Part shown: positions 640 to 8,912 of the stretch, in pieces | Position numbering within the stretch: the first letter of the stretch is position 1 | Layout: each line of letters begins with the position of its first letter | From: Pseudomonadota bacterium | GTDB lineage: Bacteria > Verrucomicrobiota > Verrucomicrobiia > Limisphaerales > SXTU01 | Assembly (NCBI GenBank): GCA_009922615.1 | Contig: RFVF01000007.1 | Span: forward strand, 30,006 to 94,005 | Length of the DNA stretch: 64,000 bases | Reading direction: 5' to 3' | Notes under the pieces: model-generated | What the model saw: only the letters and a program-made list of their open reading frames with translations | Database searches by the model: none | What the model was told of the DNA's origin: nothing | Program-made: the position numbers and the translations under genes

Positions 640-2180
640 TGTTTCTGTGGGTTTTGGGTTTGTGGCGCGGCGCTCTTCGTGAGTGCCGAAAGTTTCTCAA
701 TGTATTTTGCCGGATCAGCCCGGAATTTTGGCGGGCATGCCCCGCAGCAAAACTTTAACTGCTGGCCTTCATGAATCAGCACGGGCGGTTCGCCCATCGT
801 GCCGAGTTTCAATCCAGTCACGAGGCACACCTCAAGCGGGTAAGGCTTGACGTTGGCGGGGAGCGCCTGCGGCGGCGGCGCTGCCCCCGTTGCGGCAGGT
901 GAGGCCGCTGCGGGCGCAGCGTTGGCCTGGGAGTTGAGCTGTGCTTGGCCGTCGATGAGCAGGTTCCCCGCAGTCACCACGCGCTCGCCCGCCTTCACGC
1001 CATCTAAGACTTCCCAATCTGTATCCCCGGCCCGACCGAGTTTAACGCGCCGTTGCTCATAGGCTCCGCCGACTTCTACATAGACTACGGCTCGATCACC
1101 GGTGTGCAGCACGGCGGAGCGGGGCAGAGTTAGAACCTCGGGCGTGTCGAGCTTCACGATGGCTTCGGCATAAGTTCTGTGAAGCAACTCGCGGCGGGAC
1201 TTGCCTTGCACGGTGAGCAAGGGGTTTTGCAACTCCACCCTTACCTTGGCGCTGCGGGTCATGTCATTGAGGTTCGGGTCAATGAACGTGACGGTAGCAG
1301 TGAATTTCTTACCTGGCACGCTGGGCACGGTGATCTCCACTTCCTGCCCGACGCGCACCCAGGCGAAGTCCCGTTCATACAAGTCGAACTGGAACCACAT
1401 GGTGAAGAAGTCCGCGAGTTCGAACAACCGGTCGCCCTCCTTCACAAACTGCCCCTCGTAAACTTCCCGCGTAATGATGGTGCCGGTCATGGGCGCGAGA
1501 ATCTCACTGAGATGGTTGGTTTCGGATTTGAACGGCAGCTTCGCGATCTGGGCGGCGGTGAGGCCATAGCGTGACAGGCGTTGCTCGGCGGCGGCGAGGA
1601 GGCGCTTGTGCTCCGTCGTGAGGGCATAGCTGTGCGCCATCTGACTTTGGCGGAAGAGCAACGTATATTCGCGCTCGGCGTTCAGGAGCATCGGGCTGTA
1701 GAACGTCGCCAGCGGCTCGCCTTCCTTCACTTCCGCACCGATATAGTTCACGTGCAGCTTCTCGATGCGCCCCTCGACGTAGGCAGACAACCGGCGGTGC
1801 CGCGTGTCGTTATCGTCGATGATACCGGCGACCCGTAACGTGCGGACGAGCGGACGCGATCGCACCTCCGCCGTCTGCACCTGCACAACTTGAATCGCGT
1901 TGGAACTCAAGCTCACGGTGTCGGCGGCCACTGTAAACCCCTGCTGCCCCTCGTAAATCGGCACCAGCGTCATGCCACACACGGTGCATTTGCCGGGCTT
2001 GTCCGACTTGATCCACGGGTGCATGGGGCTTTGATAGTAAAGCACCTTGCGACCGGAAGAATCGGCTTTGGCCGCTGGCGGCTGATGGGATGCCCCGCCG
2101 TAGTGCTGGGCGGCGAACCAGCCACCGGCACCGGCCAGCACGGCGGTGGCCAGGAGGGCGAGGGGAAATTTGGCGTTCAT
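636..2180 (-). CDS. CusB-like RND periplasmic adaptor with N-terminal heavy-metal-binding motif and C-terminal YHS-like domain
   Basis: YQSPMHPWIKSDKPGKCTVCGMTL motif, membrane-fusion core (GRIEKLHVNYIG...YSPML, APMTG), C-terminal CLVTG...FCCGAC; ATG at 2180 preferred over 2207. Confidence 0.9.
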   Translation of the reverse strand: MNAKFPLALLATAVLAGAGGWFAAQHYGGASHQPPAAKADSSGRKVLYYQSPMHPWIKSDKPGKCTVCGMTLVPIYEGQQGFTVAADTVSLSSNAIQVVQVQTAEVRSRPLVRTLRVAGIIDDNDTRHRRLSAYVEGRIEKLHVNYIGAEVKEGEPLATFYSPMLLNAEREYTLLFRQSQMAHSYALTTEHKRLLAAAEQRLSRYGLTAAQIAKLPFKSETNHLSEILAPMTGTIITREVYEGQFVKEGDRLFELADFFTMWFQFDLYERDFAWVRVGQEVEITVPSVPGKKFTATVTFIDPNLNDMTRSAKVRVELQNPLLTVQGKSRRELLHRTYAEAIVKLDTPEVLTLPRSAVLHTGDRAVVYVEVGGAYEQRRVKLGRAGDTDWEVLDGVKAGERVVTAGNLLIDGQAQLNSQANAAPAAASPAATGAAPPPQALPANVKPYPLEVCLVTGLKLGTMGEPPVLIHEGQQLKFCCGACPPKFRADPAKYIEKLSALTKSAAPQTQNPQKQ

Positions 2181-2219
2181 ACCGGGGTTTTGTTTATTAG
2201 TAAACAATACGTGTGCGAT

Positions 2220-3581
2220 TTACTCGGATCGCGGTGGCGAAGGTTCGGCGTGATGGGGCGTGCCGTTGTGAAGCTGCTGCACCAGCCGGGGAAGCTGGAA
2301 ATAGTCCGGCAGATTGCACAGGGCGGCGAGTTCGGCGAAGGCTTGGTGTTGCTCGACAGTGGCGCGGTCCTGCATGAGCTGGGCTTCGAGGTAGTTGCGA
2401 CGCGCGTCGAGAATGTCCCGCAGCATTCCCCGGTTGGCCTCCCACATCACCATATAAGATGCCATCCCCTGCTGCGTGCGCTGGAGGATTTCATCACGGT
2501 AGAGGAGGGCTTCACGATGGGCGGCGTCGGTCATGAGGGTCAGGCGCAGAATTTCTTCACGGACATTGAGTTCGTAATCGGTGATTTCCGCGTCGGCGGT
2601 GCGGACTTTCGCCTCGTCGCGCCGTAGATCAGCGCGGTATTTCGGCGCGTTCCACCAAGGCAGAGTCAAGCTCACGGTGAACATGCCTTCGCGAAGGCCC
2701 GCATCGCCGCTGAACTGCCGCGCTTGCAGGCCAACGCTCACATCCGGCAGGCGCATGGTCTCAGTCAGCCGGGTGACGGCTTGGGCTTGGGATTTCTCCT
2801 GGCGCAGCACCTTGAGCCGGGGCTCGTTGGTCGCGGCGTAAGCGGCCAGGGCAGGCGAGTAAACCACTGGCAAGCCAAGCTCCGGCAATTCCACCGGTGG
2901 CCAGGGGGCTTGCAAATCCCGGCCCAACAACCGGTTCAGGGTCGCTTGTTCAGTGCGCAAGCGGTTTTGCTCGGTGCGCAACGCATCGGTTCGTTTGCTC
3001 TTTTCATTTTGAATCACCAGCAGTTCCGTGTGCGAACCAGTTCCGGCACGAAATTTCTCTTCGCCCAGCGCGATCATCGTGTCCAGCCAGGCGAGGTCAT
3101 TGGTGAGGAAGCTCGTCGTCCGATGCACCAAGGCGATCCGCAACAGTGCCTTGGTCACGTCACGTCGCAGTTGCGCGGCGCGGAAAGCGGCCTCGGAGAT
3201 CTGGGTTTGCGTCTCGGCCGCCATGATGTCGCGGCTCAGGCGCGGGCGGTCCCAAAGCGGCAGCTTTTGCTCGATCCCATAGATCAAATCTCCCTCGGCT
3301 TCCAAACCACCCCGACGCGGCCCGGCCACCACGCCACTGAAGCTGAACTTCGGGTCCTCCCATCGCCGCACCGTGGCGATCCCGAGATGACTGGCCGTCA
3401 CACGCTTCTCCGCGACCTGCAGGCCGGTATTGTTTGTCTGCGCCTCGGCAAACAGCGCCGAGAGCACCGGTGGCGAAATGGCAATGGCATTCGTTCGAGC
3501 GGCGAAAGACGCTGCCCCAAGCGGCGCGCAACCAAGCCATAACCCATTTACCACCAACACGATGTAACTGACTGAGTTCAT
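2220..3581 (-). CDS. TolC/CusC-family outer membrane efflux protein
   Basis: Two OEP-like helical repeats (EQKLPLW; VSLTLPWWN); operon context; start at 3581 (MNSVSY) is uncertain. Confidence 0.85.
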   Translation of the reverse strand: MNSVSYIVLVVNGLWLGCAPLGAASFAARTNAIAISPPVLSALFAEAQTNNTGLQVAEKRVTASHLGIATVRRWEDPKFSFSGVVAGPRRGGLEAEGDLIYGIEQKLPLWDRPRLSRDIMAAETQTQISEAAFRAAQLRRDVTKALLRIALVHRTTSFLTNDLAWLDTMIALGEEKFRAGTGSHTELLVIQNEKSKRTDALRTEQNRLRTEQATLNRLLGRDLQAPWPPVELPELGLPVVYSPALAAYAATNEPRLKVLRQEKSQAQAVTRLTETMRLPDVSVGLQARQFSGDAGLREGMFTVSLTLPWWNAPKYRADLRRDEAKVRTADAEITDYELNVREEILRLTLMTDAAHREALLYRDEILQRTQQGMASYMVMWEANRGMLRDILDARRNYLEAQLMQDRATVEQHQAFAELAALCNLPDYFQLPRLVQQLHNGTPHHAEPSPPRSE

Positions 3582-3669
3582 ACCAAATCTGCTGCTGACC
3601 AATCCAAACCGAGCGGGGAAACCACGCTTCAACCCGACGCGTGGACACACTACTCCTGCGGAGTGGGAA

Positions 3670-4005
3670 TCAGATGAGGTAACTGCAATTCCGTATGAAC
3701 AACGGAACGTCAGCGGGGGAGGGAACCGACGGAACGAACGAGGCGACCGAGTAGGGCTGCGGTTGGACCTGCAACACCGACGAGACCGTCTGGAGCGCAG
3801 CCAGCAATTGCACCCGGGAATTATCCTGTGCCGGAGCGGGGGCTTTGGGAGCCGGTGTGTTCCCCGCGACCTTCATGCAGCAGGCAGCCATGTCACAGTG
3901 GCAGGACGCCTGGTTTTTGCAGAGCTGCCGCACGGGAGACGCGAAGGCCGGCAGGTGCGAGAGCACCAAGGCGAGGCTGAACAAGATGGTTATGAAGGCC
4001 TTCAC
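3670..4005 (-). CDS. Cys-rich exported leader protein upstream of the metal efflux operon (DUF2946-like architecture)
   Basis: GTG start, signal peptide, C-x5-CHC-x4-CC cluster, Pro-rich linker, C-terminal PLFIRNCSYLI. Confidence 0.7.
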   Translation of the reverse strand: MKAFITILFSLALVLSHLPAFASPVRQLCKNQASCHCDMAACCMKVAGNTPAPKAPAPAQDNSRVQLLAALQTVSSVLQVQPQPYSVASFVPSVPSPADVPLFIRNCSYLI

Positions 4006-4091
4006 GCGTTGTCAGTGTAGAGCGTTCGACGCCCGAGTCAAAGAGAAGTTCAAGCATTGCCAAGGAAAAGTGCGAACCCGCCAAGTCCTGT

Positions 4092-4107
4092 TGTTCCACG
4101 TGGAACA
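4092..4107. promoter_or_regulatory. parS centromere-like site (perfect palindrome)
   Basis: TGTTCCACGTGGAACA matches the bacterial parS consensus TGTTNCACGTGNAACA; ~50 bp past the mnmG stop. Confidence 0.85.
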
Positions 4108-4157
4108 GCCCTCCGTGTCTGGCCACTTCCCCGTTTTCCGCCGGGCTCGGCCAGCGG

Positions 4158-6185
4158 CTACAGGTCCCCGCAGCAACCCGCGTGGCCCGGCACACTGTCC
4201 TGATGCTCGGCGGCACCGCAGGCCACCGACTCCTCTTGCGGGGCGCGCTTCATTGCGATCATCACCACACTGATGTCAGCCGGGCTCACCCCGGAGATGC
4301 GGCTGGCCTGCCCGAGCGTGGCAGGACGCACCTGGGTGAGTTTTTGCCGCGCCTCGGGCCGGAGGTTGCGGAGCGACGCGTAGTCCAGCCAGTCCGGGAT
4401 GCGCTTGTCCTCCATCGTGCGGAAGCGCTCCACCTCCGCCTCCTGCCGCTGGATGTAGCCGTCGTATTTCAACGCTATCTCCACCTGCTCGACCACATCT
4501 TGGGTAAGCCTCTCATCCCGGTGCGGCAAGTCTCCATAGCCCACCTCCGGTCGGCGCAGCATCCTCGCCAGCGAATCCGATCCCACATGCGTCTTCGCCA
4601 GCCGGTCCAGCTCGGTCGCGATCGCGTCCCGCTTGGCCGCAACCTTCCGCCACAGTCGCTCTGGCAGCAGCCCCACCTCGTGCCCGATCTCCGACAGTCG
4701 CAAGTCCGCGTTGTCCTGACGCAGCAGCAGCCGATACTCCGCCCGGCTCGTGAACATCCGATACGGCTCCACTGTGCCCTTCGTCACTAAATCGTCGATC
4801 AACACCCCGATATACGCTTGGTCCCGGCGCAACACCACGGGCTCGCGCCCTTGCACCCGGCGCACCGCATTGATCCCTGCCATGAGACCCTGCGCCCCCG
4901 CTTCCTCGTAGCCGGACGTCCCGTTGATTTGCCCGGCCAGAAACAGGTTGCGACACACCTTCGTCTCCAAGCTCGGGTGCAACTGCGTGGGGAACGCGAA
5001 GTCATACTCCACCGCATACGCCGGCCGCATGATCTCGGCCTGCTCGCACCCGATGATGCTCCGCACCATCTCGTATTGCACCTCGAACGGCAGGCACGTG
5101 GAGAACCCATTCACGTAGATCTCATCCGTCGCGATGCCTTCCGGCTCCAGGAAGATCTGCTGCCGTTCCTTCTCGGGGAACTTCACGATCTTATCCTCGA
5201 TGCTCGGGCAATACCTCGGCCCGACGCCCTCGATCACCCCGCTATACATCGGCGACTTGTGGAGGTTGGCCCGGATGATCTCCGCGGTCCGCTGCGTCGT
5301 CCAAGTAATATGGCAAGGCAACTGCCCGCCCGCCTGCGCCAAGATGGAGCCGGGAGGGTAGGGACCGAGGGCACGGGGTTTCGTCCGCTCGTCACGGGTT
5401 TGTTCCACGTGGAACTTGTGCCCCGGTTCCCTGCCCTCCCTATTCCCTATTCCCAATTCCCTATTCCCTTCGTCAAACAGCTCCTCCTTCCAATACGTGA
5501 ACCACGGCACCGGCTCATCCCCCGGCTGGACCTCCAGCTTCGTGAAATCAATGGAACCCCTCACCAGCCGCGGCGGCGTCCCCGTCTTCAAACGCCCCAG
5601 CTCCAGCCCAATTTCCTTCAGCGAGCCCGACAGACCCATCGCCGCCGCCTCGCCCGCTCTCCCCCCGGACTGCTGATTCGCCCCCACGTGCATCAGACCC
5701 CGCAGGAACGTCCCCGTGGTGATCACCACCGTCTTCCCGAGGTATTGCACCTCCAACGTCGTCTCCACCCCCGTCACCTCGCCGTCTCGGTGCAGCAACT
5801 TCACCGTCTGCCCCTGTTTACAATCCAGATTCCCCTGCCGCTCGCACAACCACTTGAGCCTGAACTGGTAAGCCTTCTTGTCACACTGCGCCCGGGGCGC
5901 GCGCACGCTCGCTCCCTTACCCGCGTTGAGCATGCGGAATTGCAGCCCGGTCATATCCGTCGCCCGGCCCATCTCCCCGCCGAGCGCATCGATCTCCCGC
6001 GCCAGGTGCCCCTTCGCCAAGCCCCCGATCGCCGGGTTGCAGGACATCTGCCCGATCGTGTCGAGATTGATCGTGAGCAGCAGCGTCTGTGCGCCCATGC
6101 GCGCCGCCGCCAGCGCGGCCTCCACGCCGGCATGCCCGGCGCCCACCACGATCACGTCATATTGCTTGGGATAAACGAACGGCAC
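4158..6185 (-). CDS. mnmG: tRNA uridine-5-carboxymethylaminomethyl(34) synthesis enzyme MnmG (GidA)
   Basis: VGAGHAGVEAA, MSCNPAIGG, LKTGTPPR, GPRYCPSIEDK, AGQINGTSGYEEA, PYRMFTSRAEYRL motifs. Confidence 0.98.
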   Translation of the reverse strand: MPFVYPKQYDVIVVGAGHAGVEAALAAARMGAQTLLLTINLDTIGQMSCNPAIGGLAKGHLAREIDALGGEMGRATDMTGLQFRMLNAGKGASVRAPRAQCDKKAYQFRLKWLCERQGNLDCKQGQTVKLLHRDGEVTGVETTLEVQYLGKTVVITTGTFLRGLMHVGANQQSGGRAGEAAAMGLSGSLKEIGLELGRLKTGTPPRLVRGSIDFTKLEVQPGDEPVPWFTYWKEELFDEGNRELGIGNREGREPGHKFHVEQTRDERTKPRALGPYPPGSILAQAGGQLPCHITWTTQRTAEIIRANLHKSPMYSGVIEGVGPRYCPSIEDKIVKFPEKERQQIFLEPEGIATDEIYVNGFSTCLPFEVQYEMVRSIIGCEQAEIMRPAYAVEYDFAFPTQLHPSLETKVCRNLFLAGQINGTSGYEEAGAQGLMAGINAVRRVQGREPVVLRRDQAYIGVLIDDLVTKGTVEPYRMFTSRAEYRLLLRQDNADLRLSEIGHEVGLLPERLWRKVAAKRDAIATELDRLAKTHVGSDSLARMLRRPEVGYGDLPHRDERLTQDVVEQVEIALKYDGYIQRQEAEVERFRTMEDKRIPDWLDYASLRNLRPEARQKLTQVRPATLGQASRISGVSPADISVVMIAMKRAPQEESVACGAAEHQDSVPGHAGCCGDL
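5401..5416. promoter_or_regulatory. Second parS site, inside the mnmG coding sequence
   Basis: TGTTCCACGTGGAACT, 15/16 identical to the site at 4092; read as FHVEQ in MnmG. Confidence 0.75.
5437..5470. repeat. Heptamer tandem repeat (TCCCTAT/TCCCAAT, ~4.5 copies) within mnmG
   Basis: TCCCTAT TCCCTAT TCCCAAT TCCCTAT TCCCTT; translates as GNRELGIGNRE. Confidence 0.9.
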
Positions 6186-6265: not shown

Positions 6266-6645
6266 CGCCCCCGAGACCAATCACCTTGAACGACGCAGCC
6301 ACCGCTGCGTGGAGGGATGTGTCCATGACGGTAGGACGTGGGATAATTCAGCGCAACTGCCGAGTCGGCGAGGCACTCGCACGCCCACATGCTTCGCCCC
6401 AGCCGGGCAAACACCCATCACCATTACTTTATCGGGAACGCCTTGGATTTAACCTCTCGGGAAGCCCTAACGAGCCGAATCACTGCCCCTTTCACCCCAA
6501 TCAACGCCTCGTTGATCGGCCAGAAACCGGCTGCCCTGAGCCGAAACACCCCATCGACCCACCGGAAACAGCCGGCGAGGTCTCCGATACCAGCTACGGG
6601 AAGCCTCGGAGTATACCCGAGCGACTAGAACGATCTCGCCGCTCT

Positions 6646-7135
6646 CCCTCACCCCAACCCTCTCCCGCGGGGAGAGAATCCACGATCCCCAAACTCCCGC
6701 GATTTCAGCCTTTGAACCCGGGCGGAGCGCCGAGCATTGCTCGGCTTTGGGGCGTTCGCCCGCTCCGGCCGAGCAATGCTCGGCGCTCCGGTTCATGGAG
6801 TGGGAGCGAGTCAGTCAGCGGGTCCCACGATCCGACGCGATGGGTTTCAGCCCAGCGCGGGCGGCGTGACTCCCTGCCGATGAACCTGACGCGCGCCCAC
6901 CCCTCACCCGCCCTGCGGGCACCCTCTCCCCTCCTCCGAAGAGGGGAGAGCATCCACGAGCCGCCAAGTCCCGCGCTTTCGTCCCCTGAACCAGTGGCGG
7001 CTGTAGCGGCGCTCTGCGAGCGCCGAGTTGCGGCCGCCTCCGCGCGAAGGACGCCACGGTCGGCGGTCACAGACCGCCGCTACAGGTCCAGGGGTATGGC
7101 CGGGGTGAGGGGTGCGCTCCGCGACGGTTCAGGAG
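6646..7135. mobile_element. Cluster of nested REP-like palindromes and MITE-like TGAACC...GGTTCA units
   Basis: CCCTCACC..CCCTCTCCC..GGGAGAG hairpins at 6646 and 6901; perfect 23-bp inverted repeat 6723-6745/6768-6790; CTGTAGCGGCG/CGCCGCTACAG inverted repeat 7001-7085; 50-bp direct repeat 6669-6718 vs 6943-6992 (40/50 identical). Confidence 0.75.
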
Positions 7136-7266
7136 CCGCCATCGCGGCCGTTGGCGAGCGATTCGCTCGCTCTCAGCGAGCACGGGTTGGGGAGTTGGAG
7201 CAAGCCTACCTTCTCATAACCTCTTCCTTACCAACATATTGCCATACGCGTTCGTTAAACTGCCTC

Positions 7267-7470
7267 GTCGAGCACTCGGTTAGCCCCGTCGAGCTGAAGA
7301 AACACGGTGTCGATCCCTCAGAACGCTCTGTCGATCGGTCGGAACACCATGTCGAGCACCTCGACACCCCATCCCTTCACCTCGACGGACCGTTCCGAGC
7401 GCTCGACAGTGCATTCCTTCAGCTCGACCAACCACTTTTTCCGCTCGACGCACCGTTCCTTCACCTCGAG
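7267..7470. repeat. Inverted array of degenerate 21-bp repeats (GTCGAG-anchored)
   Basis: TCGA at 7268, 7289, 7310, 7331, 7352 (as GTCGA) and at 7361, 7382, 7403, 7424, 7445, 7466 (as CTCGA); centre GTCGAG-CAC-CTCGAC at 7351-7365. Confidence 0.9.
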
Positions 7471-7692
7471 GCTCGTTGCAGAGGGTCTTGGGCTCGCCCT
7501 TACCCACCGCCACGGGTGGGCGCGCCGTTTTGAGCCCGTCACCGAACCTCCGGGGCCTGCGATGGGCCGCCGGCGCGATGAGGGCACCCCGCGCCACCCC
7601 GTTCCGGCTCCACCTACCGCTTTTTCTTCGTTTCGAGTCTCCTTTAACGCTGTCGGTCAACACAAACAGTCAAAACAACCCAAAAAAACAGT

Positions 7693-8634
7693 ATGTTCGA
7701 AAATTATTCGTTCCAAGTCCTGCGCCTCCGCTACATCGGGGGTGCTGCCACCGCCATCCCGTCGTTCCGGCCGGACGGCAAATCGCCGGCGGACATCGCG
7801 GCGATGGTTACCAGTGCCACCGCGCCCACCGGGCCACGCGGCAATTATGAAGCCGCCAAGGCCACGTTGGACCTGGCGCAAGGCGAGTTCGACGAGGACA
7901 TCGCCGAGGGTCACGCCGCCTGCGTGCAGGTGTATCCCATCATGAAGAGCCGCTACCGCACCGACCCCGGCAGCCTCTCCGCCATCAACTCGTTGCCCAC
8001 GGTGGACGAGTCGCCCAATGCCACCTACACCCGCCTCAAGGCCATCTCCACCTTGTGGGGCAAACTCCCCAACCCGCCCGGCTCCGCCACGCCCTTCAAG
8101 GCGTGGGATACCATGGACAAGGCGGCGTTCGACGCCTACCTCATCGCCCTCGAAGGCTCGGATGGGCCGCCCGTGGTGGTGGGCACGCTGGCGGCGAAGG
8201 CCAACGCGGAGTCTGCCTTCCAAGTCGCCGAGGGTGCCTTGCACACGGCGGAAGCGAGCATGGAGGACTTCACCACCAACGCCTTGATCCAAGGCCGCGC
8301 GCAGTTCCCGCCCGGCACGGCGAACCGGGAGGTGATTGATGCCATCCCCACCGCGCCCGCCACGCAGCCGCCCGGCCAGGCGGTGATCACCAACGCCAGT
8401 TCCCCCAGCGCGGGCGCGGCGCACTTCGACTACGATGCGCCGCACAGCACCAGTTGGGACGTGCTGCGCAAAGGGCCGGGCCAGCCGGCGTTCGTGAAGG
8501 TGGCCAACGACGTGATCGTGAAGAGTTACGACGCCACGGGCCTGCCCGCCGGCGCGTATGAGTTCAAGGTCATCGGCCGCAACTCCAAGGGCGACGGCCC
8601 GGAAAGCGCCGTGACCACGATCAACGTGGCGTAA
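7693..8634 (+). CDS. Hypothetical protein: two helical repeats plus C-terminal fibronectin type III-like domain, no signal peptide
   Basis: Strong host-like codon usage; A-rich leader; C-terminal YDATGLPAGAYEFKVIGRNSKGDGPES is an FN3 signature; two helical segments end in INSLPT and IDAIPT. Confidence 0.85.
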   Translation: MFENYSFQVLRLRYIGGAATAIPSFRPDGKSPADIAAMVTSATAPTGPRGNYEAAKATLDLAQGEFDEDIAEGHAACVQVYPIMKSRYRTDPGSLSAINSLPTVDESPNATYTRLKAISTLWGKLPNPPGSATPFKAWDTMDKAAFDAYLIALEGSDGPPVVVGTLAAKANAESAFQVAEGALHTAEASMEDFTTNALIQGRAQFPPGTANREVIDAIPTAPATQPPGQAVITNASSPSAGAAHFDYDAPHSTSWDVLRKGPGQPAFVKVANDVIVKSYDATGLPAGAYEFKVIGRNSKGDGPESAVTTINVA

Positions 8635-8653
8635 GGCGCAACCCGCCCTCAGC

Positions 8654-8720
8654 GTGACTCCTCGACTCCTCTCCCGCTCCCTTTGCGCCGCAAGGGGAGC
8701 GGGCCGGGTTGAGGGGTTGC
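8654..8720. repeat. REP-like GC-rich hairpin downstream of the FN3 gene
   Basis: CCCGCTCCCTTTGCG/CGCAAGGGGAGCGGG stem followed by CCGGGTTGAGGGG; similar to the 6646/6901 hairpins. Confidence 0.6.
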
Positions 8721-8776
8721 GTGCGCCGGCTCACGCCCCTGCCCGCGGACGGCGCACGCCGAGACCCCGGCTTGGG

Positions 8777-8889
8777 CTTAAAGCGGCACCTCTCATGAAG
8801 CTGCTCTCGCAAGCGAGCCTCCAGACGGGGCACCCACCGCTCAAAAAGGGTGCGGTATTTTTCGGTTCAATCGTAGTGCCGGTCGTCAT
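8777..8889 (-). pseudogene. intI: Truncated, frameshifted integron integrase 5' stub
   Basis: Minus-strand FERWVPRLEARLREQLHERCRFK resembles the IntI N-terminal SAM-like segment (PKLLDQVREVxRxKHYS). ATG at 8889 is one base out of frame, similarity stops before HYS, and it is divergent from the attC-bearing cassettes. Confidence 0.6.
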
Positions 8890-8912
8890 GGGTGGAACTC
8901 AGGAAATACTGC

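Follow-up and report, generated by a model that had tools for sequence, protein, structure and literature searches.

The window analysed here is a stretch of 64,000 nucleotides from contig RFVF01000007.1 of a Limisphaerales assembly (GCA_009922615.1), and this report concerns a tandem array of diverged 21-bp units found in it upstream of a plus-strand gene for an acidic 313-aa protein, which has a helical N-terminal part and a C-terminal FN3 domain (Table 1). In the arm distal to the gene, GTCGA starts at 7267, 7288, 7309, 7330, and 7351, giving five forward units at 21-bp spacing with the form GTCGA(G/T)C-NN-(TC/AA)(G/A)GAAC-N5. The proximal arm is marked by CTCGAC at 7360, 7381, 7402, 7423, and 7444 and by CTCGAG at 7465, and its consensus is the reverse complement of that of the distal arm. 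A first-pass annotation of this DNA had described the five GTCGA units, the flip, and the six CTCGA anchors, and the window sequence and repeat searches confirm them: Tandem Repeats Finder (TRF) reports period 21 over 7301-7355 and 7357-7469, and a repeat search of the tract returns five copies at spacing 21. The mirror symmetry claimed for the array holds in that each arm keeps exact 21-bp phase, but the arms are offset from one another by 9 bp rather than 0. At the flip point, 9 bp separate the TCGA centre of one arm from that of the other, and the best symmetry centre of the tract lies near 7357.

The repeat search also found inverted arms of 47 nt, with complementarity of 79% and 74% in two registers 21 nt apart. 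At least three GTCGA or TCGAC motifs at 21-bp spacing occur at only two places in the 5.5-Mb genome (331 contigs), namely this array and that of a degraded paralogue on contig C89. Units in the window are contiguous 21-mers without spacers and are only about 63-73% alike, which agrees with the earlier statement that this is not a CRISPR array. A CRISPR assignment was rejected because it needs near-invariant repeats of ~23-50 bp and unique spacers, and the window units fit neither.

Table 1. Features of the array, its leader, and the downstream gene (window coordinates).
Feature	Position	Strand	Description
Distal arm	7267..7359	.	Forward 21-bp units; unit starting at 7351 truncated
Flip point GTCGAGCACCTCGAC	7351..7365	.	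Head-to-head meeting of forward and reversed cores
Proximal arm	7360..7470	.	Six reversed units
Variable spacer, array to leader	7471..7586	.	Rich in inter-population single-base differences; short GC-rich palindromes
Degenerate proximal-arm-like units	7587..7640	.	Out of phase with main array
A/C-rich leader	7638..7692	+	Directly 5' of ATG; kept in the C89 paralogue
Helical+FN3 gene, 313 aa, acidic	7693..8634	+	Open reading frame list, AlphaFold2 model, structure matches

Within the block of degenerate units, 7607-7626 is 85% like 7422-7441 of the proximal arm, and the block is probably the leftover of a longer proximal arm that was split off by an insertion. The leader and the start of the gene (7638-7742) are 88.7% identical to C89 2905-3009. 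DNA sequencing runs from other samples allow the array to be compared between populations, and in one of four such runs (X12) there are 2 differences within the array versus ~20 over 7480-7637. The spacer at 7480-7640 has ~20 inter-population differences in two of the four runs, and the array together with the 170 nt on its 5' side is almost invariant across all four. No RNA run is listed as containing this stretch of the window. GC-rich palindromic elements resembling repetitive extragenic palindromes (REP), such as CTCTCCC...GGGAGAG, adjoin GGGTGAGGGG blocks at 6636-6804, 6898-7111, and 8670-8730. These REP-like elements have many copies on other contigs, and similar insertions lie between array and gene in several loci of the homologues.

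The protein encoded downstream was modelled with AlphaFold2 at a predicted local distance difference test (pLDDT) score of 94.6; in the model, residues 2-216 are helical and residues 224-313 form an FN3 domain. Residues 224-313 superpose on FN3 with Z 12.8 and a root-mean-square deviation (rmsd) of 1.8 over 88 residues aligned to 4yfe_B. Many further FN3 chains match this domain, which in the model has the seven-stranded beta-sandwich expected of FN3; the Pfam fn3 match to the protein is sub-threshold (E 0.031). The open reading frame (ORF), the model, and the superposition together bear out the prediction of a 313-aa gene with a C-terminal FN3-like domain. Two helical repeats had been proposed as well, and a short / 40-residue / short helix pattern does recur in the model, but the corresponding sequence echo is weak (E 0.16). 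The N-terminal 222 residues modelled alone reach a pLDDT of 94.4. Foldseek finds no match to this domain in the PDB at E 0.001 or better, and a profile search of PDB sequences yields no hit with E below 0.17. Its best VIA-align match is a BAR domain (Z 9.0, rmsd 3.0, 101 residues aligned), which is in the range of a generic helical bundle. Apart from the sub-threshold fn3 match, Pfam, PHROGs, NCBIfam, and PADLOC contain no family for the protein, and its ESM Atlas matches are unnamed Verrucomicrobiota clusters only.

Searches identified 191 relatives of the 313-aa protein at E 0.001 or better. The few for which a source is named carry the labels Verrucomicrobiota, Pedosphaera, or Chthoniobacterales, and some titles of metagenome-assembled genomes (Planctomyces, Kuenenia, Akkermansia) conflict with the Verrucomicrobiota labels, so these names may be unreliable. 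The family is restricted to some Verrucomicrobiota, and its distribution there is patchy: none of 200 other genomes sampled from the whole phylum has it, and within the order it occurs in 10 of 150 others. No relative was found on viral contigs. We analysed 13 loci from species genomes and 38 from metagenomes. In 12 of the 13 species-genome loci, lag 21 is the top autocorrelation lag upstream of the gene, the exception being a 5'-truncated gene. For a uniform comparison we used a score, S21, that averages conservation over the five best columns of eight units, and compared periods of 17-25. By this score period 21 ranks first upstream in 38 of the 41 non-redundant loci, and S21 is at least 0.9 in 36 of the 41 upstream stretches versus 1 of 31 downstream controls. 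Among the three loci with another best period, L062 has no array, that of L063 is ~1.3 kb from the gene on the upstream side, and L027 reaches 0.90 at 21 bp too. Relatives from other genomes at 23-45% identity have 21- or 42-bp arrays upstream too. The link between array and gene thus extends well beyond the window, and the check proposed with the first-pass annotation came out in its favour, since the flanks of homologues autocorrelate at 21 nt and those arrays that were examined in detail flip orientation.

No flanking gene is conserved as a neighbour among the homologue loci, and because the flanking genes differ from locus to locus, the conserved unit is the array plus the gene. Paralogues in the same genome, on contigs C12, C89, and C147, likewise carry arrays. 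The copy on C89 retains three GTCGA units, the window's leader, and a gene with an internal deletion, while the paralogue on C12 has a frame break and an array anchored by GTCTGMGG that flips to CCTCAGAC. The C89 region (~2177-4368) is a degraded copy of the whole module that shares both upstream and downstream flanks with the window, and an ORF on the opposite strand between its gene and the downstream flank is, by eye, a candidate tyrosine recombinase. Genes just 3' of other homologue loci include one for a TIR-NACHT protein (L002:5019-7445) and one for a large SpvB/TcdB_toxin_midN/FG-GAP protein (L005:4963-8895); the remaining neighbours are unrelated housekeeping genes.

Arrays of the family, with limits set by heuristics, contain ~6-28 units and end between 36 and ~540 bp before the ATG (~650 bp in L065), the long distances being due to REP-like insertions. 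An orientation flip is present in every array examined in detail. Forward units are always distal to the gene and reversed units always proximal, and either arm may be the longer one. At each locus the consensus of the reversed arm is the reverse complement of that of the forward arm, despite cores that are lineage-specific. These cores grade into one another: the window's group has CTCGGAACG as well as GTCGAGC, another group has GCGTCTGCGGC or GTCTTCGGC, and a third has GGAAAGGCNTCTG. Even in the closest relative of the same genus (72% protein identity), the unit, AACGCACCTAAAAACCTGCTC, is visibly different. Several arrays (L014:1249-1395, L064, C12:165-300) show a 42-bp super-period made of two alternating unit types, and in L064 the match at lag 42 (0.85) exceeds that at lag 21 (0.74).

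A spacing of 21 bp corresponds to two turns of B-DNA, and it is kept strictly. In 31 arrays with 470 units, 392 of which could be scored, 382 units lie at offset 0 and a 1-nt slip was seen once. Alignments between arrays at 66-82% identity are gapless, have gaps of 1-12 nt that are mostly paired, or have gaps of 21 or 33 nt. Old, diverged arrays have just a 4-6 nt core left at exact 21-bp spacing, for example GATCA in L016, TGAC/GTCA in L017, and TTCG/CGAA in L023 and L048. The earlier claim that anchors stay in phase while the remainder diverges therefore applies to the family as well as to the window. Selection on a short core and on two-turn spacing suggests recognition on the double helix, as 1-nt shifts in spacing should be tolerated on a flexible RNA, and the array may thus act as double-stranded DNA.

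It had also been proposed that the ~200 bp could fold as one long bulged hairpin. The window tract does fold well as a long hairpin on either strand (z -7.3 and -7.2 versus shuffles), but this fold is not conserved among arrays, for which z ranges from -10.6 to +0.3. Among 26 arrays folded on the plus strand, 10 have a z of at most -4, and in 8 it exceeds -2. Over 22 arrays, 53% of mirrored positions (1622/3081) form Watson-Crick pairs and 30% are unable to pair, and G:U-type pairs show no enrichment on the gene strand (230 versus 294 on the opposite strand). Because several symmetry registers 10.5 nt apart score similarly, the complementarity of the arms appears to be mostly a consequence of their shared consensus. 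A specific long hairpin was rejected as a universal conserved feature on the grounds of the pairing frequency, the lack of G:U enrichment, and the arrays with z above -2. Rfam 15 has no match in 7100-7720 at the gathering score, and in a search at E up to 5 the best hit (E 1.7) was far below gathering.

Since 21 nt is also seven codons, the tract might instead encode the heptad repeats of a small coiled-coil-like protein. In line with this, the period is divisible by 3, the arrays show a weak 3-nt periodicity, an open plus-strand frame (6286..7533) spans the array in the window, and one frame with an ATG is open across the array on C12. The frame in the window has no start codon near the array, however, and neither array ORF has a Pfam match. 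All six frames contain stops in 8 of the 46 arrays listed, one of which is only 36% G+C; both arms of L023 are closed in every frame, as are the proximal arms of L006 and L048. Substitutions between arrays are spread evenly over the three phases (28/33/43 for L031/L032, 33/28/32 for L044/L047, 34/33/31 for L002/L015), and the distribution is near-equal in all array pairs listed, with no excess at a third position. G+C content at third codon positions (GC3) is 0.77-0.95 in genes, and no array phase exceeds 0.79. The arms are moreover reverse complements of each other, a relation that a protein has no reason to keep. On the six-frame stops, the even substitution phases, and the absent GC3 signature, a coding tract was ruled out, and the heptad reading, which the first-pass annotation had named as one that would overturn its own, is largely refuted; we give it almost no credence.

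A scan of the genome for further arrays found 37 regions with lag-21 periodicity. When regions that a shorter period accounts for are removed, so that only primitive periods count, 21 bp dominates the tandem periods of the genome with 27 regions. There are 9 regions at 42 bp, 8 at 12 bp, 5 each at 18, 24, and 30 bp, 3 at 22 bp, 1 at 19 bp, and none at 20 or 23 bp. Whole-genome TRF misses most of these arrays because their units are too diverged. The 21-bp arrays are mostly intergenic, at the 5' or 3' ends of genes, and fewer than 1% of the intergenic regions in the genome carry one. Their neighbours include ThiC, Hsp70, PGK, a class II tRNA synthetase, alcohol dehydrogenase, CorC, and a TonB receptor. 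Of 24 genome arrays, 15 reach an inverted symmetry of 26/42 or more, and none of 24 random controls does.

One of the genome arrays lies 5' of a distant member of the FN3 family (E 3.8e-10), and two lie 5' of genes from a second small family, whose proteins have an FN3 or Ig-like domain. The two proteins of this second family (C318:356-970 and C274:15781-16479; 204 and 232 aa, 25% identical) have one fn3 match and one Ig-like match, and the arrays are 215 and 63 bp 5' of their starts. Some cores recur between loci. A palindromic core, AGGCAAnTGCCT, is common to the arrays at C40:7225-7470 and C310:28884-29200 and, judged by its sequence, would be the kind of site read by dimeric DNA-binding proteins. 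An A/T-tract core, AAATGACTT / CATTTTTAGGG, is common to C271:5264-5462, C302:23449-23723, and C331:6567-6881, arrays which adjoin genes for an alcohol dehydrogenase and a tRNA synthetase, a CorC-type transporter, and a DUF7133 protein.

Arrays also occur in other genomes, which were sampled in pieces of 400 kb or less that are too small for a comparison of density: G314, with three copies of the family, has 7 arrays in 400 kb; G316, with one copy, has 4 and another at 42 bp in 400 kb; the 192 kb of G204 gave a single match that looks coding; and none was seen in 185 kb of G213. Two clear arrays were found in 400 kb of G238, which is of the same genus and has no family member, and the arrays are therefore independent of the FN3 family. 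One of the outcomes that the first-pass annotation had set against itself, arrays scattered regardless of this gene, is thus partly what we see, with 27 arrays in the genome, most of them by unrelated genes, and further ones in G238. The array appears to belong to an undescribed genome-wide class. A full-text literature search, judged from titles and the openings of abstracts, gave no description of such arrays.

The explanation we prefer, tentatively and at somewhat less than an even chance, is that the array is a phased DNA platform for cooperative protein binding. It builds on the anatomy of the array, its pairing with the gene, its non-coding nature, its strict phase, and its lineage-specific cores. 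The array would be a non-coding cis-acting DNA element with short recognition cores exactly every 21 bp, and the two-turn spacing would place all cores on one face of the helix. A protein would then bind the array cooperatively, starting at the head-to-head junction and extending outward along both arms. The resulting complex may regulate the downstream helical+FN3 gene at the level of transcription, serve to package the DNA here, or both. The binder need not be the FN3 protein, because mirrored arrays of the same period adjoin unrelated genes and occur without the family. A bolder version, which we consider possible but doubtful, is that a Limisphaerales-type subset of Verrucomicrobiota uses mirror-image 21-bp arrays genome-wide to assemble a protein filament or wrapped complex, with the FN3 family tied to arrays having private cores.

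Several observations weigh against the phased platform. The FN3 protein is the only linked gene product, and it is acidic, as is its family (median isoelectric point 4.9 and net charge -12 over 52 members). The fold and sequence searches returned no helix-turn-helix-like or other nucleic-acid-binding match for it, and nucleic-acid binding by this protein is neither suggested nor excluded by these sequence and model data; the idea in the first-pass annotation that the FN3 protein acts with the array accordingly found no support in the charge of the family or in the N-terminal domain. Paralogues within a single genome have unlike cores (GTCGAGC..GGAAC in the window, GTCTGMGG on C12), which makes a single host factor with fixed specificity unlikely. 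A scan for sigma-70-like promoters over 6900-8900 found none, and by-eye looks for sigma-54 or extracytoplasmic function (ECF)-type motifs, and for a shared motif 5' of the arrays, found nothing consistent. REP-like insertions of up to ~650 bp between array and gene in some loci are awkward for a tight operator, and elsewhere in the genome arrays lie at the 3' ends of genes. The mean autocorrelation of the arrays also has a weak 3-nt periodicity, which may stem from common descent of the units and from triplet-like sub-repeats. Finally, the homologue loci are related to one another and are not independent events, so the counts given above overstate the independent support.

In a rival explanation the array is transcribed as a leader or separate noncoding RNA, whose hairpin or repeated protein-binding motifs control the stability or translation of the FN3 mRNA. 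REP-like insertions are easily tolerated inside a transcript, compact loci where the array ends 36-60 nt from the ATG leave little room for a promoter, the proximal arm and leader are, by eye, C/A-rich and G-poor on the gene strand, and the window array, like 10 of the 26 on the plus strand, folds far beyond shuffles. We nevertheless regard this as unlikely, since the mirrored positions pair poorly and without gene-strand G:U enrichment, registers 10.5 nt apart do as well as one another, 8 of the 26 arrays have a plus-strand z above -2, the arms are very unequal in length, no Rfam family matches, and exact 21-nt spacing without slips is unexpected on a flexible single strand. The genome-wide distribution raises the different possibility of a selfish or neutral intergenic minisatellite class, similar to REP elements and bacterial interspersed mosaic elements (BIME), in which slippage and arm inversion spread the arrays and the copy at the FN3 gene is merely inherited. 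Such a class would account for the 21- and 42-bp arrays beside the 5' and 3' ends of unrelated genes, for the cores common to C40/C310 and to C271/C302/C331, and for arrays in a same-genus genome without the gene family, and recombination between inverted arms would be able to hold the mirror layout without selection. It is less able to explain why nearly all family members, down to 23-45% identity, carry an array when fewer than 1% of intergenic regions do, or the strong preference for 21 bp when 20 or 22 bp might serve as well. Diverged arrays that are no longer homogenised still keep phase and a short core, which suggests purifying selection, and we think a neutral origin improbable as well.

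The layout also recalls iteron plasmids, where direct repeats at about two turns are followed by inverted copies beside a linked gene, and the array might then be an iteron-type origin or a centromere-like site of a small integrated or mobile replicon, with the gene product as initiator or site-binding protein. The window does have direct repeats in the 17-22 bp range at about two turns with inverted copies near a linked gene, the family is patchy and multi-copy in some genomes, and a tyrosine-recombinase-like ORF (by eye) accompanies the C89 copy. Contexts are ordinary and chromosomal, however, with non-conserved neighbours and one locus on a 1.1-Mb contig; viral contigs give no match, the paralogues are old (45-70% identity) rather than recent copies, no gene for an NTPase partner is linked, and the acidic protein has no winged-helix or Rep-like match among the fold and sequence matches listed. 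We consider this very unlikely. Still harder to credit is a type III toxin-antitoxin or defence-like pair in which upstream tandem RNA repeats neutralise the downstream protein. Short, lineage-specific tandem repeats directly 5' of one protein gene in a patchy, multi-copy family would suit such a pair, and the 42-nt super-period of several arrays is near the 34-45 nt of antitoxin repeats. Half of the units are antisense, though, like arrays stand beside housekeeping genes, PADLOC has no match, and a helical bundle with FN3 is not a ToxN/AbiQ-type endoribonuclease fold. A terminator scan of 6900-8900 found a site only at 8838-8852, and no terminator-like site lies between 7470 and 7693.

Elsewhere in the window, an ORF of 675 aa occupies 4158-6185 on the minus strand. 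Its N-terminus appears to resemble the tRNA modification enzyme MnmG/GidA. The MnmG/GidA gene adjoins the replication origin in some bacteria, but no skew switch is visible at this ORF in the window's composition profile.

Strict helical phasing over 6-28 units of non-coding DNA is rare in bacteria, and nearly all members of the FN3 family keep an upstream array over deep divergence. If the bolder, genome-wide version of the platform is correct, these arrays would be a new bacterial cis-regulatory or chromatin-like architecture and not a variant of iterons, operators, or REP elements. Knowing the binder, or an intrinsic role in DNA shape, would tell how little-studied freshwater bacteria organise or regulate their DNA, and would give a starting point for working out what this widespread family of acidic helical+FN3 proteins does. 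Even if the arrays are neutral, the process that generates repeats of such a specific length would be notable.

Comparison with known systems shows partial likenesses to several of them. In ToxI-type antitoxin RNA, short tandem repeats directly precede one protein gene, and each pair has a repeat sequence of its own. The window array differs in its 21-nt repeats, its orientation flip, the terminator not found, the unrelated fold of the protein, and the lack of a match in the defence library. Enterobacterial REP/BIME elements are intergenic repeats that alternate in orientation throughout the genome and have been proposed to bind architectural proteins, and the 21-bp arrays resemble them as a genome-wide intergenic class in alternating orientation. 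REP units are individually palindromic and have one genome-wide consensus, whereas the units of 21-bp arrays are mostly non-palindromic and the core is private to each locus, so that only the period is common, apart from some loci that share cores. Theta-plasmid iterons and the phased 12-mers of Vibrio cholerae oriCII are direct repeats of ~17-22 bp at about two-turn spacing for which helical phasing is essential, and in iterons inverted copies adjoin the linked gene. Arrays of the window type differ from iterons in being chromosomal with variable neighbours, in having far more units, in lying beside housekeeping genes as well, and in being linked to a protein without likeness to Rep or winged-helix proteins.

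The phased arrays of response regulators are the remaining comparison. BvgA sites have a spacing of 22 bp, and OmpR and PhoB boxes are further examples. In such operators, of which BvgA dimers at the ptx promoter are an example (PMC7250471), sites upstream of a gene recur about every two turns on one face of the DNA, weak sites being filled cooperatively from a stronger nucleation site that is often an inverted repeat. Like such operators, the arrays described here have cores at integral helical turns with a spacing that appears to be under selection, as judged from the 382 of 392 units in register. Known operator arrays have 2-6 sites, a known regulator, and one fixed motif, whereas arrays of the window type have no linked regulator, comprise 6-28 units with a full flip of orientation, and have cores that differ even between paralogues of the same genome.

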